Shown: positions 4,318 through 52,388, numbered from the whole stretch's first letter. The stretch is 53,739 bases of DNA, filler included, from Asterionella formosa (GCA_002256025.1; 4 parts of 4 records of this genome joined end to end with filler, not necessarily neighbours in it), one strand, 5' to 3'. Translations and numbers: made by a program. Notes: generated by a model not told the origin, from the letters alone.

Positions 4318-5630
4318 TGTGATAGTAGGGCTCTGCTGGTGGTGGGAGCAGAGGAGTCGCCATTGTGATAATAGGGAGATGCTGGTGGTGGGATCAGAGG
4401 AGAAAGGAGATAGGCCAGCCAGTGTGAAGGCCGACCGCCTTACAACAACAGCAACAATGATGATGGAGCATTGAGTGTTGACGATTTTCATTATAATTAA
4501 TTACTATAATATTCCTACAGACCAGACTACTAATTTTCATGTAGGAATTAAATTTCAATTCTTGAGATCGGCCTTTTGACATATGGATTGATGTACTATT
4601 TAATCTTTGGGACCGTAAGGTGGCAAAAAAATTTCCTGAATACAAAGATCGAAGATTTTGCTGTGATAGCTTCGCAGCCAATATTCGATCTTCGTATTTT
4701 GTTGAAAGGTCTCGTACTCCTTCCGGTCTGACAGGTTCCTCTTATGTAGGACTTACCTGTTATACCACTAGCTAGTATTGTTATCTTCTTTCTGCTGCTA
4801 GCCTTCGTGCTAGTTTTCGCTATTGACCTTACTCTGTCAATTCTCACTGTTTCTTAATTATAAGCTTAAACTAAAAACTAAAGTTTCAATCCCATTCATC
4901 ACACTTCGAGAACCTGTTCTTCGTGTTCTCTTTTCGTTGATGTAAGCCTTCTTCTGATTGATCTAAGACATCAATCTCATTAGCAAGCTTCTTGACATGG
5001 GAACGCACCATTTGACTCATTGGACTATATTCGAGTCCACAGTCCTTGTGACTCATTATAGCCATTGATGCTATATTCTTGACAGTATTTCGGGGACAGT
5101 AAGTTTCAGCCTTACATACAATTGGTGCCCCTGAAGATAGGGACATAAATCTGGAATAGAGTGCTTTCGCCTCCGGAAACCAAACCGCCATTTTTGTATC
5201 ATATTTCGGCGATGATACACCAATGACAACAAATAACAGAATGATAAGAACGGCCCTAAGAATGAGTTAGGGGCCATCCTTTCTTGGCTTACAACATAAA
5301 TTCAGCAGGGCCGGGAGTACCATACCAAGCAACGAAAATTTTTAGCAATATTTATCCTAAATTAAATAATTTATTTAAGCAAAATGACCGAAACTTACAG
5401 ACACTCTTGACTTTAGAGATATTTAAATTGTATCAGAACACATGTACATAGGGTCTTAAGCAAAATGACCGCAAGTTGCAGATCCTGTACCTCAGCCTGC
5501 TAGCTCCAGCTAAATATTTCTCAAGAATGCATCTTGCTTGCATCAGATACATGACATCCCGGTATACCGGCAAATATATTCGATGGTGTCGTATTTACAC
5601 TATTTCTTATAGAAGGGATACGAAGCCATC

Positions 5631-5676
5631 TACTGGTATACCGGTAGCTAGACTACCTGGTACCTGGTACCCGGTA
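5631..5676. repeat. GGTACC/TACCWGG/TACCGG motif cluster upstream of the LRR gene
   Basis: tactggtataccggtagctagactacctggtacctggtacccggta, ~220 bp before ATG 5899. Confidence 0.85.
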
Positions 5677-11719: not shown

Positions 11720-11857
11720 GTACCGGTATATACATACCGGTAGCATAACTACTGGTATGCCGAGATAATTGTTTGCTCCAAGACAATTGATTTTCATGTC
11801 GTCATGATGTCACCTACTACCAGGTACTCTGGTACCAGGTACCTGGTACCTGGTAGT
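11720..11857. repeat. GGTACC/TACCWGG motif cluster upstream of GPD2
   Basis: taccggta x2, tactggta, and taccaggtactctggtaccaggtacctggtacctggta, 300-450 bp upstream of the minus-strand ATG. Confidence 0.85.
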
Positions 11858-13372: not shown

Positions 13373-13472
13373 NNNNNNNNNNNNNNNNNNNNNNNNNNNN
13401 NNNNNNNNNNNNNNNNTTAATTAATTAANNNNNNNNNNNNNNNNNNNNNNNNNNNNNNNNNNNNNNNNNNNN
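13373..13472. other. assembly gap spacer N44-TTAATTAATTAA-N44
   Basis: Identical 100-nt structure at three positions; artificial six-frame-stop linker. Confidence 0.97.
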
Positions 13473-13990
13473 CCTTTCCTTCTATTTCTATATTGTACTT
13501 GCTCGACTTATTGCTGTAGACTATTTGTAGCTGCTCCGAAACGGAGAAGGCCATTGCGGCACATCTCAATTTTGACTCACTACGGCGACATGCAAGGTTA
13601 AAATATGCAACAGCTGTTTCTGAACGAAATAACGGATTCAATTCCTTATTGTCAGCTACTCATCATCCTTTCCTTCTTTTTCTATATTGTACTTGCTAGA
13701 GTTATCGCTGTAGACTATTTGTAGCTGCTCCGAAACGGAGAAGGCCATTGCGGCACATCTCAATTTTGACTCACTACGGCGACATCCAAGGTTGAAATAT
13801 GCAACAGCTGTTTCTTAACGAAATAACGGATTCAATTCCTTATTGTGAGCTACTCAGCATCCTTTCCTTCTTTTTCTATATTGTACTTGCTCGACTTATT
13901 GCTGCAGACTATTTGTAGCTGCTCCGAAACGGAGAAGGCCATTGCGGCGCATCTCAATTTTGACTCACTAGCTACGGCGACATGCAATGC
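13473..13990. repeat. ~195-bp tandem repeat, about 2.7 copies
   Basis: cctttccttct...ttgtagctgctccgaaacggagaaggccattgcggc recurs at ~13473, ~13668 and ~13861. Confidence 0.92.
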
Positions 13991-17179: not shown

Positions 17180-18208
17180 AGTAACCTGACAACACCACTT
17201 AGTGCAAATTTTTGTATACAAATTTGCGACTGACACACTTGTTTCATTGATGCATCACACGACTGCCTTCAGGGATGCAAAGACAATCTTTTGCTAACAA
17301 TTGTTACCAGTCCCGCTTGGTTTCTTTCTATGTATCATATTTTTACCTTTAACTAGTTTTATAAAGACAATCTTGTATTGAGCAATTCGATTGGTCTATG
17401 TTGATGTATTTTTACAATTCAAACTCTTGCTGGCACACATCGGGCATGGAGCTAATTACAGTTACCATCAAATCTTCCTTGGACAAAGTCTTTTGATCAT
17501 CTGGATGATACACGAGCTTGAGGAGTCTATTCCTGGTCTTGAGACAGTATACGAAGTCCATGAAAAATGCTGAATGGTTTTGTCAAGTATCAAAGCATCC
17601 ACTGATGCTGACACTGAAAGCTATCCTGAATAAGGCAGTCTTCTGTCCATATCACCATGGCGTCATCAAAACTTTTATAGGGCTTATTATCTGGGAGTAC
17701 TTCAACGTTCTTCCATTCAGAAAAGGCGATTTATGTAAGGCACCTTTTGAGTAGAAGAGGGTTTTTCTTGCTGGAGGTTAGGCATGGAATTAACTCACAG
17801 TAACCAACAAAGCTTCAACTGAGCTTCCGTGAATCTCATCTTGGCTGGTTGAAAGACTCAAGACTTTCGAACTGGTACGAATGCATAAAAGGTGCTATTC
17901 TTGATGTTTAGTAGGTTGAAATCCTTGATCAATGGGACCACTGGGACCTGAGAATACATCAACATTGTTAATTCTAATTTGATTCTTTTTGAAATCAAAG
18001 TGAAATATCTCACTAGAAGTGGTAGCATTTTTTGAATAAAAGAGCTTATTACTTCATCCTAGTGTGCAACTCATTCTCCTACTAGGCTGACACTTAAGTA
18101 TTCAATAGGTGTTAGTAGTTGAGTTTTCTCTTGGTAGAGTTCTGATATTATCTATGAAACACTAACCCTATAGGTGTACCGGTATGTGTAGTTGACCGCA
18201 ATCGCTCA
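17180..18208 (-). mobile_element. Gypsy-family LTR plus 5' internal region (copy of the 47984 family)
   Basis: Begins TGAGCGAT at 18208 (minus strand); shares cctatagggttag, agaactcta and attagaattaacaatgttgatgt blocks and the downstream internal repeats with 47984-48780. Confidence 0.75.
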
Positions 18209-18243
18209 CCTGGTTTGTCTACATAGCTACTGGTAGCCAGGTA

Positions 18244-19876
18244 CCAGAAAAGAACTGCTGTGACCCACTGAGTTCTCCTATTCGTTTGATTAGTTCGACT
18301 AAACCTTTTCCATGCCTTGCGAGAATCAAACTTCCAGGTCTTGTTAACCAAAGGATTCAGCAGGTTGTGGATATGTCGGTATTCTCATTGAAGGTCGAGG
18401 TACTGAGATACGATCCCTTTTATGTTGACAAAATTTGCCGGTAATGGGTCACAGCTGTACTTAAATTTTTATCTATAATTGTATATAATTGTATATACCA
18501 TTATGATCACGGATTACCCCGTTTGGTTTTCGCAAAATTATTTTGAAGAATTTTCGCATCCAGTATTTATATCACAATCACACACAAATGCATTCAGCCA
18601 CATTAAATGCTTGCGCTTATCAACACCACTGCAATGTCGCCCTCATCCCTAGTACTAAGCTCCTGCCCTCCCACAAGCACAACATCAAGAGGCCGAATTG
18701 GATATGGAGAATCCTTTTCTCCACGGCAACAAGTCTCCAAGTATCTTGCCAACAAGTTCTGTTTGGTTATTGGAAGCGGCGCATCGCCGTTGCGCCTGTA
18801 CCATGTCACCATTGTTTTCAGTTCAGCTAGTACTACGTTGTAGCTTCTAGCTTCTTTCCAGTCTCTCTGATGGCCTGTGCCTTCTGTGACAATTAAAAAA
18901 ACCGTTGACTCAATTTCTGCTCCTTGTTTTGTTCCTGGATTTCATGCCACCAGCGTTTGATTTCCAGCATATGCTCAAAAAGCGGTGGTCCTAGACAAGT
19001 GTTTCCAACAGCAAAGTGCAGTCCTGCGGTCATTCGTTTGTGTTTGTCGATTGCTGCTTGTGCTGTTTGCTTTCTTTTCCTGGCATGATGTTCTGCTGAA
19101 TCATTACCATTTCGCACATCTTCTCACTTTATGTATTCAACGATTTGATTTGTAAGAGTTCCTGAAAGTCCTTCTCGCAGGTCGAGCTGGTCAGGTGTAA
19201 TAGAGTTGCTGCCTGTTACTGTGTGAGATTCTATTCAATGGGACAACACACACCAAATTTCGTCAGCTGCATTTCAGGATTCAACAAACAATTATAGTTC
19301 AAAGGTCCCCAGCCTCGCTCTGCTACCGCTTTTTTGTTTGTGCGTAATCTCGCAAAACCTTTCTCCCAAGAAGTGAATTTGCAAGTTGCAGTCCCTCTCG
19401 GCATGTGATGGGCGACTCTTGGCATGTGATGGGCGAACGCATTTTACTCAACTGATCAATGAGCTCCACAATGTAAGGTTCCACTTCACGCATAGGTGAG
19501 AGGCGTTCTGTGTTTGTTCCTTGATTGTTTTTTCTTTTTGCACATGTTCTAACTGTTTCGAAATTAATATTGACAGTAGGAGGAATACCAAGCGCCTCCT
19601 TTTCTCTCAGTATTATACAGGTAAGTGTATTTCTCTTTACTCGTGATTCTCCTCCTCCTCCTTTTTCTTTTTCCTCTTCTCTCACCCCTCATATATTCTG
19701 CTGCCGAATTGGAAATACATTCTTTCACTTTTTCTTTGGATGATCACCATAGGGCAGGGTTGTAGTGGCAGAAATGGTGCTGCTGCATTTGGTAGGGTCA
19801 AACCGTGTTTTTCTCCTGTTCAGTGGGTCACAGCGGTTCCAATTTTTTTTAGTGGGTCGCAGCAGTTTTTTACTGG
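18244..19876 (-). mobile_element. pogo/Tc1-like DNA transposon, internally deleted, with TA-flanked CCAG...CTGG TIRs
   Basis: TA|CCAGAAAAGAACTGCTGTGACCCACT (18244) and AGTGGGTCGCAGCAGTTTTTTACTGG|TA (19876) are imperfect inverted repeats; fragments EVEPYIVELIDQLSKMRSPITC..EGLQLANSL (CENP-B-like HTH) and KAVAERGWGPLNYNCLLNPE; DDE core deleted. Confidence 0.75.
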
Positions 19877-19912
19877 TACCAGGGTGCCTACTGTACATAC
19901 GGGATGACAGTA

Positions 19913-21156
19913 CCTGCAAGTTGCGGTAATTTTGCTGAAACTAAAAGTTAAGCTATCTTTATCCGATATTAAGGTAATATCGCTAGGGTTGTAGAAAAAG
20001 CGTGGAACAGGGAGCTTCCTACTATGAATTCTCATGATTCGAGTGTCCATTTGAATATTTGAATTAAATAGGAATCGGGGCCAGATTGATAGAGTTCCAT
20101 TTTAAAAAAATTATAAAATTTAAACGTTTAGACTTTTTCTACATTACTGAATTTAGGCATAATTTTGCTCAATGGCAAAACACATGCATATATAAATTAG
20201 GAGCATGCCATAATGTATGCTCATGGCTCTTGTTTATACGTTCATAATGAATCTGTGTCGCTGAATGTAGTTTCAATATCACTCCACGCACAAAGGTATA
20301 TACCGGTATGAAAATCAGTGCCGGAGTCCCAGAGTAACGGTATTTCGGTACTCGGAGCACCAGGTAGTAAATAATATTGGTCCATCATGATGGAGGACAG
20401 GATGTACTACCGATAGCAGTGTACCAGTACTGATTTTACCAACCATTTTTTAGCACATCTAATATGTGTGGCTCAAGTGTGGCTGGCGAGATTTTACAAG
20501 ACCGGGATACTTCAGCGAATCTGGAGCAGGTGAATAAATTCAATTCAACCAATCAGAATATGTGTAGGGACGCGGGAACTTACCCTGGAGTCTTTTCGGA
20601 CTGAGAATTATTCAGTGAAACATACCCACGCAAGACTCCAAGTATACGAGAACGTTTTTGCACATACAAATTCTGATTCCAATATTTTGGCACCTGTTGA
20701 AAAAGCCGATCGGGTCGACTTTTTGAAGGATGATTGCTCTACATCTACGGGGTTTCATGAAGAATGAAATAGATAGCCGTGCACCCTATAACGTCAGGAT
20801 TTAACTTCTGCAGAGAAGTGGCAGTTATCCCTCGTAGATTTTTTCAAAAGCTTGATGGCCCCCTTTTTTGACTATTTTTTGGATAGTTCCGATTCTAAGA
20901 GGGATAACTGCCACTTCTCTCTAGAAATGAGATCCTTACCATATCTTTTTATAGATCATACCCCTAAGTCGACCCATGACTGTATCTAAGCATAAGCAAA
21001 GTGGTCGTATTGGTGAAAGCTAATTTTACCTTTAACTATTTTACTTCGTTGCTCGTGCTGTGTGGATTGAAGTACATAATATAATTATTTTGGAAAAAAA
21101 CAGACCTCGTGTTACCTACCGGTAGTTTAATTAGCAAAATTACCGCAACTTCCTGG
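19913..21156. mobile_element. non-autonomous TIR element, TA-flanked, CCWG termini
   Basis: TA|CCTGCAAGTTGCGGTAATTTTGCT at 19913 and AGCAAAATTACCGCAACTTCCTGG|TA ending at 21156; no coding capacity; a related TIR lies at 5459-5481. Confidence 0.7.
20796..20936. repeat. long imperfect inverted repeat (arms ~45 bp, 22-bp perfect core)
   Basis: agagaagtggcagttatccctc ... gagggataactgccacttctct. Confidence 0.9.
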
Positions 21157-21490
21157 TACCAGGTACCAGGGTACCTGGTGCCTACCTGATCGAGTATCGA
21201 TGTACCAGGTACCAGGTATGTAGGAGAAATTGTACTCTATCTTAGGTGCTGGAAGACCGGGTCGTACCTGGTACCTGGTACGAGGTACCCTGGTACCTTC
21301 AAGATTCTTGATATTTACAACCAGGTACCAGGGTTACAGGTACCGGTAGCTGGTTCCAGGTACCTGGTACCAGGTACCAGGTACCATCGTGAGCAACACC
21401 TTCAGCAAGTGTACCGGTACCTGGTGCTGGTACATTTTACCGGTACCAGGGTACCCTGGTACCAGGTCGACTACCGGTACTCTACCAGGA
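21113..21490. repeat. largest (GGTACCW)n / TACCGG array, upstream of the HIBCH-like gene
   Basis: Dense tandem and inverted ggtaccag/ggtacctg units, e.g. ccaggtacctggtaccaggtaccaggtacc; ends ~120 bp before ATG 21611. Confidence 0.92.
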
Positions 21491-21610
21491 TAGCAACATT
21501 CATTACTTGACCCTCTCTCTAACATAATCATATGCCTCGTCCCTAAAGGTTGAGCTCCTCCTTGTTCTCGCCAGGGCCCCCGCATTCGCTTTTACGCTCT
21601 CATTTTCATC

Positions 21611-24456: not shown

Positions 24457-24585
24457 TGTACCTGGTACCTGGTACCTGGTACCGAATACAGCAAAAGAGG
24501 GCATAATCGCAGACGAGCACGCTCCGAAGTAAAGCAAAGGTGACAATTAGCTACCGGTACGACCTGGTACGACTACCGGTAGTAG
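24457..24585. repeat. GGTACC/TACCWGG cluster upstream of the thioredoxin-like gene
   Basis: gtacctggtacctggtacctggtacc and ctaccggtacgacctggtacgactaccggtag, 260-390 bp upstream of the minus-strand ATG. Confidence 0.88.
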
Positions 24586-26076
24586 CCATGTGGCGTCACA
24601 TCTACATCATACATATGTTCTGCAAGGCAGGAGTTGTGACGGTTAAAGGACTACCAGTAGGCAATGGCAGGAGAGGGTTTTGCATGTACGGATTGGCTGG
24701 GATGTAGCTAAATTTCTCATTGTTTTGCGGATTCAAGAATGGAATTGGACTACCGGTATGTGAAGGCTTCTACCGCATTCAGTCCAAATTTTTCGATCCC
24801 CTGCCACCCCCCACATGGGCAGAACAGTGCAAACCACTATCTTTGAGTCTGGTTTACTTTCACCACAATGTAGTCAGTCACACTTCATACACATGGAACA
24901 CTTCAGCTCCGGCCGCTTAGCTCCTATATGGAGAACATGGTCATGTGCAACAGCCTTGGATGAGGAAGAAATAGGCATGAATTGTCATCAGTGTCTATAC
25001 AAGCACAAGTGCAATTTCTCGTTTGTAGTCATGTACTTTAAAAGTTAATTGTGAAACATACACATGGAAAACTTCACATGATGTACAAATTCAAACAAGA
25101 TGCCAGGGCACATACAACACATTTTACCCTTCAGACTTAAAAATTGTAGGCTTATCCTCTATTTTCTCCCTATTTTGACTCCATCAAGAATTCAGGGGTA
25201 TAGTCAAAGTTGTAACTCAACAAAAATTAAAGAATTTGTGGTAAGCATTTCTTGAGCCCCTTCCCTGTAACTGCAAGAGTGATCCCTGAAATTGGTTACT
25301 CCCGCAAATCCCATAGCTACTTGTGATGAAGTTGTAATCCAGACAACATTTTGCTTATGTCATGCTTTAGAGAATTTGGCATTAGTAAATTCCTAGGTAA
25401 ATTAGTAAATCTATGATAATACATTTCTTAACTATCTTAAACAGCCAATGATAAACATCATGAAATGCAGCCATGGCTGGCAAAAAATCAAAGAAATGAG
25501 CAAGCCAGAGACCATGACGGAAGCTGAAAGCGGCACCTGTTGTTTGTAAACTGCATCTAAGAAGGCAAGTCTTTCGTTGAGATGTGAATGCAAATGGCTG
25601 GGGCGCCAGTAATTTCTCACAGGAGACACCTTGCTAGGTTGTGTAGTTTTGCGATGTTGATTTCAATCAATCATTGCTCTATCTACAAACCTAAAAATTC
25701 ACGTCAACCATAATAAAAGCCTCTATTAGACTAGCAGCTGCAGTTAGAATTGTGGCTTCAAGGAGTAGCTCTTTGCCATGCTGTATCCAATGAAACCATC
25801 ATGGTCAGCAGGCAGTCATGACATACCATAAGTGGGGTTAATTAAATCAAAAGGCAGTTTGCCATAGGAAAAGATGAACAAGCTAAAATAAAATTTTCAT
25901 GTAAGTGTCACTTTTTACTACACGTTTTAAGTACCGGTAGGTGAAATACTACCGGTAGAGCAATGCTCGAGTTTGTTCTACACATGTGAAGTGCTCCATG
26001 TGTAACTTACTTACCGGTAAACAGGTAGTACATAGCTATCATTACAAGTTTTACAAAATTCTACGAGTAAAGGTAC

Positions 26077-26837: not shown

Positions 26838-26937
26838 NNNNNNNNNNNNNNNNNNNNNNNNNNNNNNNNNNNNNNNNNNNNTTAATTAATTAANNNNNNN
26901 NNNNNNNNNNNNNNNNNNNNNNNNNNNNNNNNNNNNN
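26838..26937. other. assembly gap spacer
   Basis: N44-TTAATTAATTAA-N44. Confidence 0.97.
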
Positions 26938-27099: not shown

Positions 27100-27406
27100 A
27101 GTTTGAATCTTGATGTTTAGTATGTTGTTATCCTTCATCAATGGGACCACTGGAACTTGAGAGGACATCAACAATATTAATTCTAATTGGACTCTTTTTG
27201 AATTCAAAGTGAAGTATCTAACTAGAAGTAGTAGTATTTGTTGAATATATGAGCTTATTTGTTAATCCTTGTGTGTAACTCGTTCTCCAAGTCGACACCA
27301 AAGTATACAATGAGGGTTAGTCGAGTTCTCTCATTATTGAGTTCTGATACATATATGATATAACACTAACCCTATATACATCTGTATTGATGCGCAAGAT
27401 CGCTCA
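27100..27406 (-). mobile_element. Gypsy-family LTR copy plus adjacent internal sequence
   Basis: Minus strand begins TGAGCGATCTTGC at 27406; ends ...gatacttca followed by ctttgaattcaaaaagag; homologous to the copies at 47984, 49660 and 18208. Confidence 0.8.
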
Positions 27407-27722
27407 CCAGGTACCCACCCTGGTACCAGGTACTTACTACCGCTATAATGATCTTCAGGTTGCAACCATCAGCCACAGGTGGAAATCAGGGCAGGCACCC
27501 GGTAGTTCTATTTTCGAATACCGGGTACCGGTATACTGGCCGAGACGTTTTAGCTCAGTCTTGATTTCTTCAGATTTCTCTCTGCTGATTCGTGATCCGA
27601 ATATTGTAACTTCGCTGAACACAACGCTATCGTTTACTGTTCGTTTGCCTTTGGTCGTTCTCTTTGATAAATCCCATTACGAGATTATTAAACGCTGTAG
27701 TGCAACAAGTACAAGAGGCATC

Positions 27723-29897
27723 ATGACTATTGAGGACTGTAGGTGATGTGAATCAAGAACAGAAAAGGACGCGAGAAAATGTTTTGCGATCGTGACAAAC
27801 CTCATCATTGCGCCCTTCATTTTTTCGTTCCACAGCAGATGATGAGGCCACTTATATTGAGCCCTCAAGGGCGTTGCTCCAGCTTCGAAACGCAACCAAT
27901 GAGATTTATAGAAATGCGGAATCAAATCCCAACTATTTCGAGGAATTGAAGACTGGAATGTTTCCTTTGCACATGGCATGTCGTTACAATCGTCCACTCT
28001 GTGAACTTGAATTATTGGTTCAACAAAATTCAGATTCTGTCAAGGCAAAGGCGAATGATGGAAGGATTCCTTTGCACTATGCATGTGAGAATAATGCTCC
28101 ACTTGAAGTTTTGGAATTCTTGGTCCAACAGTATCCTGATTCTGTCAAGGAAACTGCATTTGATGGTAGTCTTCCTTTGCACTGTGCATGTTTGCATACT
28201 GACCCACTTGAAGTTTTGGAATTTTTGGTCCAACAATATCCTGATTCTGTCAAGGCAGATGATCTATTAAAGTTAGCATTTGAACATAGTGCACCAGTTG
28301 AAGTGTTGGACTTTTTTATCAAACAATATCCTGATTCCGTGAAACAACTGGATGGTTTTCTAAGACTTCCTTTACACTACGCATGTGGAAGTTATGATAA
28401 TGAACCATTAGAAGTGGTTGAATTCTTGGTCCAACAGTATCCTGATTCTGTTACCAAAACAGATAGGAGTGGATTGCTTCCATTACATATTGCATGTGAT
28501 AATAGTGTATCCCTTGAAGTGTTGGAATTCTTGGTCCGACAGTATCCTGATTCTGTCAAGGAAAAGTCGAATGATGGAAGAATTCCTTTTCACTTTGCAT
28601 GTGAGAATAATGCACCCCTTCAAGTGTTGAAATTCTTGGTCCAAATGTATCCTGATTCTGTCAAAGAAAAGCATAATTGGGGCAGACTTCCTTTGCACAT
28701 TGCATGTGACAATAATGCACCACTTGACATTTTGGAATTTTTGGTCCAACAATATCCTGGTTCTGTTAAAGAAAAGGACAAGGAACTAAAACTTCCTGTG
28801 CACTATTCATGTAAGCAAAATGCACCACTTCAAGTATTGAAATTCTTAGTCCAACAGTATCCTGATTCTCTCAAAGAAAAGGACAAACATAGAAGACTTC
28901 CTTTGGACTTGGCATGTCTGAATAATGCACCACTTCAAGAATTGAGATTCTTGGTCCAAGTGTATCTTGATTCTGTCAAAAAGCAAAAGGATAATCTTGG
29001 AAGACTTCCTTTGCACTTTGCATGTGCAAAACATGCAACTCTTGAAGTTTTGGAATTCTTTGATCCTGATTCTTTCAAGGAAAAGGATGTTCTTGGGAGA
29101 CTTTTTTGCACCATGCAGTTGAAAGAAATACACTACTTTAAGTGTTGGAATTTTTGGTTCTACAATATCCAGATTCTGTCAACACAAAGGCGAATGATGA
29201 AAGGCTTCCTCTGCACTATGCATGTGAGAGCCATGCAACACTTGAATTATTAGAATTCTTGGTCAAAAAGTGTCCTGATTCTCTCAAGGAAAAGGATATT
29301 CGTGGGAGACTTCCTTTGCACTTTGCATGTGAGAATAATGAACGTCATGAAGTGTTGGAATTCTTGGTCCAGCAATATGCTGATTCTGTCAAAGAAAGGG
29401 AAAATTGGGGCAGACTTCCTTTGCACTTTGCATGTGAGAATAATGCACCACTTCAACTGTTGGAATTCTTGGTTCAACAATATCCTGAATCTGTCAAGGA
29501 AAAAGAGAAGGATCTCAATCTTCCTTTGCACTATTCATGTAAGAAAAATGCACCACTTCAAGTGTTGAAATTCTTAGTCCAACAGAATCCTGATTCTGTC
29601 AAGGAAAAGGATAATCATAGAAGACTTCCTTTGCACTTAGCATGTGAGAATTATGCATCACTTCAAGTGTTAAAATTCTTGGTCCAATGGTATCCTGATT
29701 CTGTCAAGGAAAAGGATGATCTTGGAAGACTTCCTTTACACCATGCATGTGCAAAACATGCAACTCTTGAAGTTTTGGAATTCTTGGTCTATCAATATCC
29801 AGATGCTGTGTTGCTTGTAGACATGTTTGATAGATCATCATTGACTTATGCAACCAAAGAAAATTTTGGATTCATGCTTTTTAGCACAATGCAGTGA
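27723..29897 (+). pseudogene. ankyrin-repeat protein (~18 repeats), disrupted by a frameshift and a stop; exon 1 27723-27738, intron 27739-27835
   Basis: Repeats of GRLPLHxACENNAPLEVLEFLVQQYPDSVKEKD; GTAGGT..CACAG intron is in frame; -1 frameshift at ~29101-29107 and TAA at 29139-29141. Confidence 0.85.
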
Positions 29898-31022: not shown

Positions 31023-32600
31023 ATGGTATTGTCAATCCATTGCAAAGTGAGAATGAATTTGATCCTGTCATGCGTTATCATCTTTGGTTGCGGCGCTGCA
31101 GCCAAATGGAACGTCCGAAGTTTCCTGCATGGCCTTCAGAACTCCAGTACTGCAGATTCGAACCTCCTTCGTCACGATGGTGATGGCATGCCGAGTTTGT
31201 CAATCCCTAGTTCTCCGTCAAGAGACTCACCCAACACAGTTCCAACCCATAAAGCGGTGCATGACAAAGTGGAAGGAAATGAAACATTGACACATAACAA
31301 CACACAAGTTACAACACTGACTAATAAAACGCTAGATGCATTTTCATCAATTATACGACGAGTTGCACTAGAAGCAACAACACAAACAACCAAAGCCCCA
31401 GTAACCCAAAGGCCTACCTGGGCACCAGTGACACAAAGGCCCACCTGGGCGCCAGTAACCCAAAGACCTACCTGGGCACCAGTGACACAAAGACCTACCT
31501 GGGCACCAGTAACCCAAAGACCTACCTGGGCACCAGTAACCCAAAGACCTACCAAAGACAAAACAGAAACCTCAAGACCCACTGGGGCACCAGTGACACG
31601 AAGACCCACTGGGGCACCAGTGACACGAAGACCTACTGGGGCACCAGTGACACGAAGACCCACTGGGGCACCAGTGACACGAAGACCCACTGGGGCACCA
31701 GTGACACAAAGACCCACTGGGGCACAAGTGACACAAAGACCTACTAGGGCACCAGTGACATCAGCTCCAATGACACCAGCTCCAATGACACCAGCTCCAG
31801 TGACCACTCAACCAACTAGTTTTCCTACCCTCCAGTGCATGAGCACCCAGTCAGTGGTTGTTTTGTTTGGACAAGCATATCCTTGTGACACAACTATTTT
31901 GTACTCCAATTATTTCACTGGCACTCTTCCCACAGAGATTGGACTCTTGAAAAGTCTCAATCGACTATGGTTATACAACAATTATTTCAATGGCATACTT
32001 CCCACAGAGATTGGATTCTTGACAAGTCTCACAGATCTATTTTTGGTCTCCAATAAATTCATAGGTACACTTCCTACAGAGATTGGACTCTTGAAAAGTC
32101 TCAAGATTCTATATTTGACCCTCAATACTTTTACCGGCACACTTCCCACTGAGATTGGACTCTTGACAAGTCTCACTGGTCTAGAATTGGACTACAATTC
32201 TTTCAAAGGCACACTTCCCACAGAGATTGGACTCATGACAAGTCTCACTGGTCTACACTTGTCTAGAAATACTTTCAATGGAACAATTCCCACAGAGATT
32301 GGACTCATCACAAGTCTCATGTCTCTATCTTTTGCCTCCAATTCTTTCACTGGCACACTTCCCACAGAGATTGGACTCTTTACAAGTCTCCAGTATCTAA
32401 TATTGAATGACAATACTTTTAATGGCACACTCCCCACAGAGATTGGACTTTTGACAAAACTCAGTTATCTACTTTTGTCTTCCAATAAATTTACAGGTAC
32501 TGTGCCAGCAGAGATATGGCCTGGACTTAAAGGAAGTCTCATTCGACTAGATTTGAGCAACAATTTATTCACTGGTTCAGTCCCTACTGTTTGCTGCTGA
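31023..32600 (+). CDS. secreted or surface LRR protein with a mucin-like Thr/Pro stalk
   Basis: Hydrophobic N-terminus (MNLILSCVIIFGCGAAA); 9-aa repeats APVTQRPTW and APVTRRPTG; ~10 LRRs of 24 aa (FTGTLPTEIGLLTSL). Confidence 0.9.
   Translation: MVLSIHCKVRMNLILSCVIIFGCGAAAKWNVRSFLHGLQNSSTADSNLLRHDGDGMPSLSIPSSPSRDSPNTVPTHKAVHDKVEGNETLTHNNTQVTTLTNKTLDAFSSIIRRVALEATTQTTKAPVTQRPTWAPVTQRPTWAPVTQRPTWAPVTQRPTWAPVTQRPTWAPVTQRPTKDKTETSRPTGAPVTRRPTGAPVTRRPTGAPVTRRPTGAPVTRRPTGAPVTQRPTGAQVTQRPTRAPVTSAPMTPAPMTPAPVTTQPTSFPTLQCMSTQSVVVLFGQAYPCDTTILYSNYFTGTLPTEIGLLKSLNRLWLYNNYFNGILPTEIGFLTSLTDLFLVSNKFIGTLPTEIGLLKSLKILYLTLNTFTGTLPTEIGLLTSLTGLELDYNSFKGTLPTEIGLMTSLTGLHLSRNTFNGTIPTEIGLITSLMSLSFASNSFTGTLPTEIGLFTSLQYLILNDNTFNGTLPTEIGLLTKLSYLLLSSNKFTGTVPAEIWPGLKGSLIRLDLSNNLFTGSVPTVCC
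31395..31810 (+). repeat. coding 27-bp minisatellite (two sub-arrays) plus 15-bp TPAPM repeats
   Basis: gcaccagtaacccaaagacctacctgg x~6, then gcaccagtgacacgaagacccactggg x~6. Confidence 0.95.
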
Positions 32601-40299: not shown

Positions 40300-40399
40300 N
40301 NNNNNNNNNNNNNNNNNNNNNNNNNNNNNNNNNNNNNNNNNNNTTAATTAATTAANNNNNNNNNNNNNNNNNNNNNNNNNNNNNNNNNNNNNNNNNNNN
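40300..40399. other. assembly gap spacer
   Basis: N44-TTAATTAATTAA-N44. Confidence 0.97.
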
Positions 40400-46720: not shown

Positions 46721-47823
46721 TTATCCTATTTCAATCAGTTCACGCATGACATCGGCGAAGCACATTACCCGGAGGTCGCCTAAACCCATTGTTGGTGACA
46801 ACATCAAGAATAATTTGCCAAATCTGTGAAATACCTTGCAATACAGCATCCAACTTCCTGACAGTTGGAAGATAAACCCAGGAGCATTGGGCATTGGATC
46901 AACAAGCTCCAAACTAGTCAGAAATTCCATTCCACTAGCAAGTTCTTTCTTTTTATCATCATCCATGAGTAAGCAAAAATTGTGTAAGCGTGCCCAAGCA
47001 GAAAGAATTGCAACTGATTTCTTCATCCTGAAGGACAATGATGTCCTCAGGATCCTCCATTTATTGGTGAGCAATCCAAACCTCATCTCAATTCTATTGC
47101 GTAGTTGTGGAAGGAAATAGCAGTTGTATGCATCTTTGTTTGTTGATTCCCTTTGAATTCCAACAAATGGACAGAGCACTTGATCAGTAAATGTGTAAGC
47201 AGCATCACCTACTACTATGTATTGTCCTACTAGAAGAAGGTTGGATACAATCTTAAAAAGTTTTGTTCTTTCAAATGCCTTCTGATCTGGACATTTTCCT
47301 GGTGCCACAACACCAAAGTATAGGAAACAACAATTGCTGTCACAAAGAGCTTGAACATTCAATCCATATGACATATAATGCCCAGACCAATATGCTTGAG
47401 TGAAGCCATCACAATCCTTTTTTCTTGGTTTAGAAATAGTCTGTAAATATCCATCTATAGCACCAATGCATCCACAAAATAGTTGCTGCTCGTTTTTTCA
47501 AGGAATCCATTCATCACTGTTTGTTTCTCCTTGTTTGTTGTAGGGAATTTTACTGATAATGCTATGCAGGACTTCACCGCATCAAGGAATGTTTTAGTGA
47601 GGATGGCATAGACAGATGGATAAGAAACTCCATAGACATGACGAATGTCTATGAGGTTTCCGCCTGCAAGCCAGCGAAGTCCGATGGCAAGGATCACCTC
47701 AGGATAAATATGCTGATTTGAGATGTATAAACCGGAACTTGCATTTGATTTAACAACATTAACTGTGATGGAAGGTCGAAGGAGTTCCAGTACCGGTAGT
47801 TGATTGAAAGCTTCAAGAGACAT
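46721..47823 (-). pseudogene. PIF/Harbinger (DDE_Tnp_4/HARBI1-like) transposase pseudogene
   Basis: LAIGLRWLAGG, CGCIGAIDG, GLNVQALCD, GDAAY, RIEMRFGLLTNKWRIL and ARLHNFC motifs; frameshifted. Confidence 0.92.
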
Positions 47824-47983: not shown

Positions 47984-49855
47984 TGAGCGATCTTGCTCAA
48001 CAACAGACACACCTATAGGGTTAGGTTTACATAGATACATCAGAACTCTATCAGGAGAGAACTCGACTAACACCTATTTGAATACTTTAGTGTCCACCTA
48101 GGAGATCGAGTTTCACACAAGGATTAACTAATAAGCTCGCCATACACTACTACTTCTATTTAGATACTTTGAAATCAAAACGAGTCAAATTAGAATTAAC
48201 AATGTTGATGTATTCTTCTCAAGTACCAGTGGTCCCATTGATCCAGCAACAGTTTGAATTGTAAAAAGAAAGCAACACAGACCAATTGATTTTCTCGGTT
48301 TCGACTTAGTTTGAGAGTCAATAATCATTCTAAGATCGTCACAAGGACCCAAAGCATGGATTCTACCATGATACAAGAGCGCTGAAGGCAATCATGTGAT
48401 AGTCAAGAAAACAAGCGTGACTGGTGTCAATTTTCTAACACAAAATCGTCTATAAATAGTTAAAGTTGAATCAAGAAGCTAAGCGGGACTGGTGTCGAGT
48501 TTTAACACGAAATTGTCTTTATATAGTTAAAGTTGAAGGCAATCATGTGATGCATCAAGAGACCAAGCGGAACTGGTGTCAATTTTTTAACACGAAATTG
48601 TCTTTATATAGTTGAAGTTGAAGGCAACCATATAATGCATCGAAAAACCAAGCGTGACTAGCTAGTGTCACTATTAACAAAAGATCGTCTTCGCATTGCT
48701 GAAGTCAATTGTATAATGCATCAAGAAAACAAGTGTGTGAATTTAAGAAATTTTTACACAATATTTTTACATGAAGCGGTTGTGTTAATGCACATGCAAT
48801 CATGATCGCAGCCAGCCATGCATGCAGTTGTGAACCAACAGTCAAACATAAGGTGGCCCCTCAATTTTATCTTATTACTAACACTTTCACTGCTAAACCA
48901 GTTACTGTTCCTCTTGCATGGAATTTTTTGCAGAGCAAACTATCATAGTGACACAGCTAATCCTATTCATGTTTTCTGCCTTGCATGCATGTTTCTACAA
49001 ATCCATGGGTTAGCCCCCCCTATGACTATATCTGGTTAGGGTACTGTGCCGAGGGCCATACATGCCGAATTTTATGAATCTGCCAAGGAAAATTTAGTGA
49101 TCATGAACCCTCCTGTTGGGCAGCTAGTGGCCATTGTGCCTAAAATCCAGCAGAATGCTGAACAGATCGCCTTAAAGTAAAACAGTCTACAAGTTATGTT
49201 AAAGGCTCATCCTCCAATCAATGAATTTCAAGGCTCAGATTATTGTGGATGCATGTTTTGCAGCTGCATCATATGCAGCTCGAGCTACTATTTATAGTGC
49301 ATTGCATATTTCACCAGGAACATGGGTTTTTCAACATGATATGATAGTAAATATTCCTTTGATTAAAGATTTTCAATTAATATTGGAATATCAATGTCGA
49401 CAAGTGATTATTGAAAAATTTCTACATCGTGCTAATTTCCATCATTGTTCTTATGATTACAAAGTTGGTGATGAGATTTTAATTCTGTTGGATAATCCTA
49501 CTTCCTTGGATGACCATTGATGAGGTCCTTATTCTATTATTCAAGTATATGCCAATGGTACAGTTACTTTTCAATGAACCATGCATATTACAGAATGAAT
49601 TAATATTCATCATTTCAAACCTTTTCATAGGTGAAAGGTTTTCCCTTGGTGTGGGAGAGTGAGCAATCTTGCTCAATTACAGACACACCTATAGGGTTAG
49701 GTTTACATAGATATATCAGAACTCTATCAGGAGAGAACTCAACTAACACCTTTTTAAATACTTAAGTGTCAACATAGGAGATCGAGTTGCACACAAGGAT
49801 TAACTAATAAGCTCATATAATCAACAAATACTAGTACTTCTAGTTATATACTTCA
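47984..49855 (+). mobile_element. internally deleted Ty3/Gypsy element with two ~190-bp LTRs (47984-~48168 and 49660-49855)
   Basis: Direct repeats TGAGCRATCTTGCTCAA...tacttca; integrase C-terminal relic (YAARATIYSALHISPG..YDYKVGDEIL..PYSIIQVYANGTV) followed by a PPT (GTGGGAGAG) before the 3' LTR; ~75-bp internal tandem repeats at 48385-48740. Confidence 0.85.
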
Positions 49856-49859
49856 CGGG

Positions 49860-50078
49860 ATACCTGGTACAAATAGTTCTGCCTCCTTCGATCGACTCTT
49901 ACTGGTACACACTGCCTTCCTGCTAGGCATATATCATAGTACTGGGTACCGGGTATCTAGAACCCGGAACTATACCACTAGGAGTACACACTACACACTA
50001 CCTAGTGCCAGTAACTGCCAGTACCAGGTACAAATACCGGTATCGGTACCTGGCAACAGTACCAGGGTACGACTGGTA
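49860..50078. repeat. GGTACC/TACCWGG cluster upstream of the SP-RING gene
   Basis: tacctggtac, gggtaccgggta, agtaccaggtacaaataccggtatcggtacctgg, gtaccagggtacgactggta. Confidence 0.85.
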
Positions 50079-50129: not shown

Positions 50130-52388
50130 ATGCAAGGAGACGCGCAACCACATCACACACGTAGTACATGCTACTTTCCCAATGCTCGTTTAACAGACGA
50201 AATGGCCTCATCCATAGCGCAAGAATCTCTTTCGAAAGAAGAAAGGGAGGCATGGGAAAGCATTTTGGAAAAAAGGAGACCGGAATGGGCACAATTGAAT
50301 CCAAGCGTTCTTGATGGAATTATCAGCCTACCCTGGAGTAACTTGACCACTCAACCTCCGCTGCTATCCTCGAAGGAAAAGCTTGATTGGCTCATATCAA
50401 AGTACTTTGCGCGTTCCGTCGATACCAAAGTAGCTCCTTCCGAAAGAAGGTACGCGTGGTTGTTAGTCAAGAAACTCTTGGAGAAATCAGATCAAGCGTG
50501 GCGCCAGCACAAAAACAATCAGGAGGAGCTCGCTCTAATAGACCTAGAAACACCTTCTAGCAATACGCTAAATCTGGCAACTTCGAATACTGTAATTAAC
50601 TCGCAGAATGCTGATCTTTCTGGTACCACCCAATTTCGGACAACTGACATTCGTTTGCCGGAAGGCGGCGAAACAACGCCTCTTTCGGCAACTCAAGCTG
50701 CTGCAAAGCCACCACCTCCTTCCTCCGCCAGTAATGTAGCGCTTCGTTCGACAACAACGGCAGCGGCGAGTGTAAGCGCCAATCCGGCCTCAAGTGAGAC
50801 CAACGTAGAAGCTGCTGGGCGCTCATCATTGGTCGACAGCACGACATTAGCAGCTACCACGTCGCATAGGCTTCCTGAAACTCATTCTTATGTACGGATA
50901 AAACACGACAAAAGTAGCCCTACAGATAAATTGCCTTCGAGCTCTGTACCCATCAAGTCAATCATCGCTACAAATCAAAAGCTGAACGGCAAACATTTTG
51001 CTAATTCCAGCCAGTCCTACATGGGAGCCGCACAATCATCGGCTTCAGCCTTTTTTGTGGCTCCAACGAATGGCTCTCACCAGCATCACATGTCCAAGCC
51101 ACACGAGAAGGAAGTTGCTGAGACACCACCACCTAGATTGCCGACTTATTCAAGAGTTTGCACACCTGATCTCGTATCTCATCCTGTTCAAAACCTTTCG
51201 TCGAGCCCAGTGACTATATATTTCCCAAGAGACGATAACAAATATTATGGTGGTCTTACTGCTCGACCGATTATCAAAACCGTTCACAAACCCCAAACTA
51301 TGACAGAAGAAGCTATGAAACAAGTCAATTCTCGACTCGCAACTTGGGATCCTTATTGGAAAATGGAAGAAATTCTTGTCCTGCAACAAACCTGTCCACT
51401 TGATTCATGTGATCTGAGAAAAGATTCAGAGGTTCCAGTTCATCGAGTTGTAAGTTGCAAATTCAGTCTGACTCTGGATCAAATGGCTCAAGTGTCTGGG
51501 TGGGGAATACCTCGTGGCAACAAGCAATATGAGCAGGGTGAGACAAGACTGATAATACGAATGCTTCCAATACTAGAGCCAGAGAGGACGGCCGAGAAGG
51601 GGAAGAAAGCACGGGCTGACTTTCATATTTGGCCCAAAGGAACGTTGCTCTCGATCTGTGGCGCAGCCACTCAAATCAACCAGCGAAAGCAGCAGGCCCA
51701 CAATAAGGAATATTGGCAGGGACTTTCATATTTTCTTGACGCAACTTCCAATGTTATTCCGGATCTCCGCATGCGGCCCGAAATTTCCATTGACGCTTGT
51801 TGCTTTGAAAACAAGCCCTACGCATTATGCATTGCTATTTGCAAATTTCAGACACCAAAGGTACTGTTTGAAAATTTAATGACAAAGGCAATTGACATGC
51901 TTCCAATGAGGTTGGCCTTGCAGAATGCTCGCCAGATGACTGCACAAAATATGGTTGTCTTGGACGAAGCTGAAGACGAGGGTCAAAATGGCTCCTTTAT
52001 CTTTAAGTTGACTTGTGCCCTGTCCTCCAGCCTTATGCGTACTCCCGTTCGTTCAAAGCGTTGCAAACACTTTCAATGCTTTGACTTGGAAAACTTTCTT
52101 CAAATGAACCAGCATGTGTCAGGGACCAGATGGGAGTGTCCAGTTTGCAACAATGAACTTATTTCTGCATATGAGTTAGAACACTGTGCGTTGACCAAGA
52201 GATTACTGGATCAATACAAAGACGTGGCAAGTGCTCAGCGAGACAGGGTCGAATTCTTCGCTGACGGAACATGGAAGCTCTTGGTCGAAAAGGGAAAGCG
52301 ATATGGCAAGGTGCAAGGCAAAGACAATGAAACCCGCTCAAATGCAGCAAAGAGAGCAAAGGTAGTTGAAGTCATAGACCTTCTATAA
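50130..52388 (+). CDS. MIZ/SP-RING zinc-finger protein (PIAS/Siz-type SUMO E3 ligase-like)
   Basis: LTCALSSSLMRTPVRSKRCKHFQCFDL...WECPVC; C-terminal basic NLS and SIM-like VVEVIDL; start may be Met at 50202. Confidence 0.88.
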   Translation: MQGDAQPHHTRSTCYFPNARLTDEMASSIAQESLSKEEREAWESILEKRRPEWAQLNPSVLDGIISLPWSNLTTQPPLLSSKEKLDWLISKYFARSVDTKVAPSERRYAWLLVKKLLEKSDQAWRQHKNNQEELALIDLETPSSNTLNLATSNTVINSQNADLSGTTQFRTTDIRLPEGGETTPLSATQAAAKPPPPSSASNVALRSTTTAAASVSANPASSETNVEAAGRSSLVDSTTLAATTSHRLPETHSYVRIKHDKSSPTDKLPSSSVPIKSIIATNQKLNGKHFANSSQSYMGAAQSSASAFFVAPTNGSHQHHMSKPHEKEVAETPPPRLPTYSRVCTPDLVSHPVQNLSSSPVTIYFPRDDNKYYGGLTARPIIKTVHKPQTMTEEAMKQVNSRLATWDPYWKMEEILVLQQTCPLDSCDLRKDSEVPVHRVVSCKFSLTLDQMAQVSGWGIPRGNKQYEQGETRLIIRMLPILEPERTAEKGKKARADFHIWPKGTLLSICGAATQINQRKQQAHNKEYWQGLSYFLDATSNVIPDLRMRPEISIDACCFENKPYALCIAICKFQTPKVLFENLMTKAIDMLPMRLALQNARQMTAQNMVVLDEAEDEGQNGSFIFKLTCALSSSLMRTPVRSKRCKHFQCFDLENFLQMNQHVSGTRWECPVCNNELISAYELEHCALTKRLLDQYKDVASAQRDRVEFFADGTWKLLVEKGKRYGKVQGKDNETRSNAAKRAKVVEVIDLL

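Follow-up and report, generated by a model that had tools for sequence, protein, structure and literature searches.

The DNA analysed here, referred to below as the window, is a 53,739-nt stretch from Asterionella formosa (GCA_002256025.1). It consists of four pieces of about 13.36 kb each, joined by three spacers of the form N44-TTAATTAATTAA-N44 (13373-13472, 26838-26937 and 40300-40399); because the window is a composite, distances that span a spacer are meaningless. Pfam searches indicated eukaryotic sequence with long intron-free ORFs, the products of which include a glycerol-3-phosphate dehydrogenase with EF hands, an enoyl-CoA hydratase-like protein, ankyrin and LRR proteins, a MIZ finger protein, a copia-type gag and a PIF-type DDE protein. 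The public sequencing runs that contain window sequence are labelled as algal, freshwater or lake metagenomes, and when run contigs were aligned to the window, the region from 13.5 to 21 kb was a high-depth repeat. Additionally, two tandem repeats lie within coding sequence, namely 13 copies of a 27-base repeat inside the LRR-protein ORF (31398-31760) and about 13 copies of a 105-base ankyrin repeat inside another ORF (28009-29809).

At positions 18177-18184, the window reads TACCGGTA, in the context ccctataggtg TACCGGTA tgtgtagttg. This word lies in the first of four copies of a repeat of about 300 bases that were found by self-BLAST of the window and that, given the piece structure, sit on three separate pieces. 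The first copy (17899-18209, plus strand) carries the insert and has the 3' end GCTCA CCTGG, and the second (27108-27407, plus strand) ends in GCTCA CCAGG TA, after which more short TA-flanked words of this kind, hereafter called units, follow. The third copy (47984-48243) and the 5'-truncated fourth copy (49659-49856) are on the minus strand. Pairwise identity among the copies is 79-83%, reaching 93% between those at 47984 and 49659. In a MAFFT alignment of the four, the sole difference at the insert point was a gap of six columns, with CCGGTA (18179-18184) present in one copy and absent from the other three. The original prediction that only the 18-kb copy carries these extra bases was therefore confirmed, as was its statement that removing them restores the spacing, since the gap comprises exactly those six columns (AGGTGTATGTGT after removal versus AGGTGTGTCTGT). 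Moreover, an independent 326-base contig from run X2 (record 19) matched 17953-18278 with no gaps and two other letters, which indicates that the insert allele is real and shared and is no assembly slip. The identification of the repeat as a Gypsy LTR was not confirmed, because no gag, RT or integrase domain adjoins any copy in a Pfam search of the window ORFs and the homology of the 18-kb and 27-kb copies extends further upstream. Two of the copies form direct repeats 1.7 kb apart, and this pair could be a small non-autonomous element. A TACCTGGTA unit (49861-49869) is located just past the breakpoint of the truncated fourth copy, as if the rearrangement had stopped at the unit.

Expected word counts were taken from 100 dinucleotide-preserving shuffles of the window. 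TACCGGTA was observed 23 times (0.28 expected), TACCWGGTA 22 times (0.23 expected) and TACCAGTA or TACTGGTA 12 times (1.17 expected), and none of the 100 shuffles attained any of these counts. The enrichment of the first two is approximately 100-fold, and the unit words are the most enriched 7- to 9-mers of the window, where units occur at a density of about 1.2 per kb. When all TA-x-TA words that occurred five times or more, with 1-7 bases as x, were surveyed, the only standouts by sequence were CCGG (113-fold), CCWGG (100-fold), CCAGGG/CCCTGG (111-fold, n = 5) and CCAG/CTGG (11-fold); the remaining high-ratio words were plain trinucleotide or A+T-rich repeats. The units comprise 23 CCGG, 22 CCWGG, five CCAGGG/CCCTGG and three CCSGG forms, and the window contains no CCTGGG/CCCAGG unit. 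The 3+3 form TACCWWGGTA occurs once; TACCATGGTA, also observed once, does not stand out in the window, and TACATGTA is not enriched there (1 observed versus 1.03 expected). The recurrence of CCGG, CCWGG and CCAG/CTGG words in the non-coding DNA is thus strongly non-random and is confirmed against the shuffles; the proposed class of GC inserts is not, as TAGCTA reached only 1.9-fold (16 observed versus 8.4 expected). Two other enriched words, GGCACCAG and GCACCAGT, owe their enrichment to the 27-base repeat in the LRR ORF; GGCACCAG and CTGGTGCC were tried as mutated units and rejected, both belonging to that coding repeat.

Among the words that differ from TACCGGTA at one position, TACCAGTA (seven occurrences) and TACTGGTA (five occurrences) are the most frequent, and both correspond to CpG transitions. 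The CpG observed/expected ratio is 0.67. In addition, three copies of a related locus (L029, L014 and L021, described below) differ as CCGG versus CCAG/CTGG at three unit positions. Because of the neighbour counts and these three differences, we read the CCAG/CTGG class as decayed CCGG, and the best reading of TACCAGTA and TACTGGTA is that they arose from TACCGGTA by CpG transition. The predicted CCAG/CTGG inserts therefore do recur and are enriched, but they are best read as CpG-decayed TACCGGTA and not as an insert class of their own.

Altogether, 66 unit matches fall into 37 clusters, and the flanks of the units are unrelated whereas the insert is constant; hence the unit does not belong to any longer repeat. 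None of the 62 main-type unit matches lies in the Pfam-supported ORF intervals, which make up 25% of the window. CCGG units are mostly solitary (21 solitary and 2 chained), whereas CCWGG units are mostly chained (18 chained and 4 solitary). Tandem Repeats Finder reported period-7 arrays at 5654, 11818, 21155, 21202, 21264, 21320 and 24458. The densest unit field, with period-7 arrays of the form (GGTACCW)n, occupies 21157-21479, starting from the right end of the element E1 (see below) and lying upstream of an ORF that starts at 21554. The array at 24458-24581 contains three CCTGG units (24458-24483) and two TACCGGTA (24552 and 24574), and at 11721-11855 two TACCGGTA, one TACTGGTA and a period-7 array are located upstream of the minus-strand glycerol-3-phosphate dehydrogenase ORF. 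A chain TACTGGTA-TACCGGTA...TACCTGGTACCTGGTACCCGGTA is found at 5631-5676, and further units, at 49861-50069, precede the MIZ zinc-finger ORF, whose first ATG is at 50130.

Six long ORFs, on the appropriate strand in each case, have a unit cluster 60-720 bases upstream (5631-5676, 11721-11855, 21117-21479, 24459-24758, 27424-27533 and 49861-50069). This arrangement suggests promoter-biased insertion or a regulatory side effect.

Searching the window for TACC...GGTA pairs with inverted similarity over 24 terminal positions identified two elements, both on the plus strand. E2 (18242-19878) reads CCAGAAAAGAACTGCTG...CAGCAGTTTTTTACTGG between flanking TAs, with 21 of 24 positions matching in its inverted repeats and with CCAG...CTGG ends, and a CCAGG unit stands outside each of its TAs. 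E1 (19911-21158) reads CCTGCAAGTTGCGGTAATTTTGCT...AGCAAAATTACCGCAACTTCCTGG between flanking TAs, or CCTGCAAGTTGCGG...CCGCAACTTCCTGG as aligned, with 22 of 24 positions matching and with CCTG...CTGG ends. Pairs that reached 21/24 numbered four among 4744 candidates, two of these being array-versus-array matches, and 20 shuffles yielded no pair of at least 21/24. No Pfam domain was detected inside E1 or E2, and E1 is a non-coding, high-depth repeat. In run X1, the summed contig depth over E1 and E2, which is not a copy number, was higher than in the adjacent gene region by a factor of hundreds; this fits E1 and E2 as high-copy repeats. Two degenerate E1-type end repeats (5378-5396 and 5459-5477, minus strand) are spaced 80 bases apart and precede the chain at 5631-5676 by about 150 bases. 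Extra degenerate copies of the E2 end repeat occur inside E2 itself (18441-18462 and 19822-19838), which suggests nested or tandem partial copies.

Pfam searches of 112 window ORFs, a set that excluded 84 further short ORFs of 70-149 aa, revealed no IS630-Tc1-mariner or other TA-duplicating transposase. The sole DNA transposase found was a PIF/Harbinger-type DDE ORF (46721-47497, minus strand; Pfam DDE_Tnp_4, E 1.8e-19), and no convincing inverted repeats were seen around it. The original prediction of a TA-targeting family with CC(W)G...C(W)GG ends was partly supported, as TA-flanked inverted-repeat elements with such ends exist in the window and in related contigs. The proposed comparison of inserts with element ends agreed well, the unit spectrum matching the CC(W)G ends of E1 and E2. 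In the contig alignments, no joint pairing an element with a footprint was seen among the best 15 of 375 joints, and no indel at a unit among the best 12 of 85 indel rows; these rows were filled with other genomic copies.

Metagenome contigs were scanned with the 18-base E1 repeat, which gave 34 loci, and these were then compared by BLAST. Seven (L002, L014, L018, L020, L021, L022 and L029) shared similarity beyond the repeat, four (L006, L017, L026 and L028) shared about the length of the repeat only, and the 23 seed-only loci were treated as chance. The E1 relatives in six independent contig loci start CC(W/G)GC-AAGTTGCGG. Counting E1-family ends with L014 and L021 omitted as same-locus copies of L029, we found a CCNG start at 11 of 12 ends and a TA outside at 7 of 12; four of the 12 share this TA with a 7-base unit, and units lie no more than 10 bases away at two more. 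Among copies that do not differ in the neighbouring 18 bases, the third base (W) of the E1 ends is variable. The core of the E1 repeat, 18 bases long, is itself identical in the seven marine-labelled contigs with extended similarity, and the runs of the window carry freshwater labels. The marine-labelled L029 contains 26 chained units in 2.4 kb, and motif matches number 21 each in L014 and L029. From these contig sequences, we take the E1 family and the units to be common to related organisms.

L029, L014 and L021 represent the same locus in three copies, which share 94-97% identity over 1.3-1.8 kb; their indels were read by eye over alignment columns 301-1618. The copies differ by 13 indel events, eight of which are units. 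Specifically, TA is expanded to TACCGGTA in L021; an imperfect 6-base unit occurs in L014 only and is derived, because both other copies lack it; CCGGTA was added at two different, neighbouring TAs of AAGCATATTTATTTG, one in L029/L014 and the other in L021; L021 carries a 13-base CCAGGTA+CCGGTA; and the alignment further contains one CCAGTA and two 7-base differences inside arrays. The two CCGGTA inserts in AAGCATATTTATTTG are independent of each other. The five non-unit indels comprise three of 5 bases (two being tandem duplications), one other of 5 bases and a 4-base CATA. All eight unit indels fall in columns 1097-1570, in and around the small E1 copy, and none occurs in columns 301-1096, which are 99% identical.

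The outgroup copies of the small element, L020, L018 and L002, contain neither the 13-base chain nor a chain of 15-17 bases that reads TA-GC-TA-CCGG-TA-CCAG-TA and onwards. With three outgroups free of the chains, the longer alleles are derived and represent insertions. The reverse order, in which the longer allele would be ancestral, is thus contradicted by the shorter form in all three outgroups, and the view that TA-duplicating inserts are derived and constant in content holds across the repeat copies, the L029 locus and the outgroups. Self-alignments of the window gave 10 indels of at least three bases outside the coding repeats, which is too few for a spectrum; one of them is a 4-base insert of the TA-GC-TA type at 13968-13971, within a single copy of a tandem repeat of 194 bases (CACTACGG versus CACTAGCTACGG). 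Together with those in L029/L021 (columns 1508-1520), the small TA-duplicating inserts of other kinds are TA-GC-TA, TA-CA-TA and TA-TGA-TA, and CC...GG ends do not explain them.

On balance, with a little better than even confidence, we read the 6- and 7-base units as excision footprints of cut-and-paste transposons, each consisting of TA, two or three end bases from each side, and TA. The transposons would integrate at TA, duplicating it, and would have 5'-CC(W)G...C(W)GG-3' ends; TA-flanked elements with such ends are present. By analogy with Tc1/Tc3, mariner and Sleeping Beauty, a departing element would leave on each flank the TA and the outer two, sometimes three or four, end bases. End joining would then connect TA-CC, TA-CCW or TA-CCAG to GG-TA, and the observed spectrum is what TA and the outermost two to four bases of CCAG...CTGG ends would give. 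Afterwards, the central CpG of TACCGGTA would decay to TACCAGTA or TACTGGTA, a step supported by the neighbour counts. Footprints would also create new TAs flanked by GG and CC, which may serve as preferred landing sites and be revisited, and 7-base units may grow by replication slippage into (GGTACCW)n, often at element ends; both steps are partly supported. The polarity of insertion is evident at the level of the aligned copies, and the link between units and transposon ends is well supported, whereas the excision step is one that we infer. Against this origin stand the E1-family ends, of which just 7 of 12 have TA outside, and the near absence of the 3+3 footprint TACCWWGGTA; in addition, a single process would not obviously predict the split between solitary CCGG and chained CCWGG units.

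The ends of E1 allow a different reading, which we regard as rather unlikely but the strongest of the alternatives. E1, and perhaps E2 and the repeat of about 300 bases, would cut symmetrically around the W of CCWGG and generate a 3-base CWG duplication, possibly through a PIF/Harbinger-like enzyme, while some other process writes the units at TA; E1 would then be a user and not the source of the units. The E1 ends are described no less well by a CWG duplication in a pre-existing CCWGG than by TA plus CCWG ends. Read on one strand, W is equal on both sides in four of the five E1 loci with both ends (the window, L020, L018 and L029, with L002 unequal) although it varies among copies, and in the L029 copy, small indels coincide exactly with the W region of either end. 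Two copies of the repeat of about 300 bases end in GCTCA-CCTGG and GCTCA-CCAGG, at other genomic copies of E1 the flank consensus terminates in GGTACCAG (place 19910, with an agreement of only 0.4), and the DDE ORF at 46721-47497 is of the PIF type. However, the presence of units at plain TA sites is left unexplained, E2, albeit a single case, carries CAG at its left and CTG at its right end, which follows the inverted-repeat pattern and forms no direct duplication, and a literature search gave no CWG duplication for Harbinger. We rank the excision origin higher because one assumption, TA-specific elements that prefer GG-TA-CC, covers both the origin of the units and their adjacency to elements, whereas a CWG-duplicating element needs a second writer. 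The two are not mutually exclusive, since units left as footprints could also be used as landing pads.

Processes that dispense with an element account for parts of the pattern. Plain replication slippage of a minisatellite with 7-base (and 6-base) units, involving no enzyme-specific step, agrees with the period-7 arrays, which span 2.4-9.6 copies, with array lengths that differ by 7 between related copies, and with the 14 gap letters in the X2 contig over 21181-21379 (1 in the adjacent 4092-base contig); W is identical in 16 of 22 neighbouring pairs of 7-base units. The shared W and the gap letters indicate that slippage contributes to the arrays, but as a full explanation it is improbable, because of the 50 chains in the window 40 consist of one unit only, solitary derived units arose at plain TAs with no adjacent copy, and W differs in 6 of the 22 pairs. 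More improbable still is templated end joining at random breaks, with an abundant nearby motif being copied: a second CCGGTA lies within 100 bases of 14 of the 23 TACCGGTA but not of the other nine, the nearest template for the unit at 18177 is 261 bases away, and unit boundaries always lie at a duplicated TA. Equally hard to credit is the idea that the palindromes are selected transcription-factor sites made by hairpin (P-nucleotide) repair or by point mutation. The clusters upstream of long ORFs would suit such sites, and the text of a study of Phytophthora infestans (PMC3597505) describes TACATGTA (M93) and TACCGGTA (M94) as over-represented promoter palindromes and reads them as transcription-factor sites. 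The units nevertheless arise by insertion of 6-7 bases and not by substitution, and they also occur inside transposons (20301 and 21117). The hairpin-type repair put forward in the original prediction was not sustained, as P-nucleotide inserts copy their flanks, whereas here the insert is constant and does not mirror the varied flanks. The units may nonetheless have a regulatory side effect.

Reading the units as excision footprints places them beside well-known systems. Footprints left between TAs are textbook knowledge, with Tc1/Tc3 keeping two and mariner and Sleeping Beauty three terminal bases per end. As in these systems, the TA is duplicated, the insert would consist of the outer bases of TA-flanked elements (CC joined to GG, or CCW to GG) and the size classes are short, clean and discrete. 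Unlike in them, the density here is far higher, the units form chained arrays and the 3+3 class is almost absent. The P-nucleotides of hAT-type hairpin footprints and of V(D)J joints are mirror copies of the adjacent bases; the units resemble these as short palindromic additions at a repaired break but differ from them in being constant while the flanks differ. For rice DNA transposons, the text of Roffler & Wicker (2015, PMC4423477) gives 8 of 94 excisions as "perfect", the rest carrying deletions (about 18 bases) or fillers (about 13 bases). That record of cut-and-paste excision likewise came from comparing close relatives, but the scars described here are uniform 6-7-base units. In the Phytophthora study (PMC3597505), which concerns another stramenopile-type genome, genes are likewise preceded by an excess of the identical word TACCGGTA and of a second TA-NNNN-TA palindrome; that second word, TACATGTA, is unenriched in the window. 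The main text of that study does not contain the stem "transpos" and gives no indel evidence. Microsatellite-associated MITEs, for example those of pineapple (PMC8449440), similarly have short tandem arrays attached to the ends of small inverted-repeat elements, but here the array unit consists of TA and the element's own end bases and is also found singly at plain TAs. Literature searches returned no account of TA-CC(W)GG-TA units or of (GGTACCW)n arrays, and a three-unit array had no match in 2.9 million viral contigs.

If the units are footprints, they would document past transpositions in the thousands and would be the predominant origin of short insertions in the non-coding DNA of this genome, as 8 of the 13 indels between close relatives were units. 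Being concentrated upstream of genes, they could reshape promoters, and they can mislead motif discovery that treats over-represented palindromes as regulatory sites. The contrast between clean, uniform scars here and messy repair in rice, as reported in the text of PMC4423477, would bear on end joining in these algae. We further suggest, tentatively and with well under even confidence, a self-reinforcing cycle in which the TA-CC(W)GG-TA scars of one family multiply the GG-TA-CC sites preferred by the same and possibly other families, so that (GGTACCW)n builds up in the promoters of freshwater and marine stramenopile algae. Were this cycle to operate, the published Phytophthora palindromes TACCGGTA and TACATGTA would likewise be transposon scars of this kind, and scars that generate their own preferred targets would represent an unusual positive feedback in transposon ecology.
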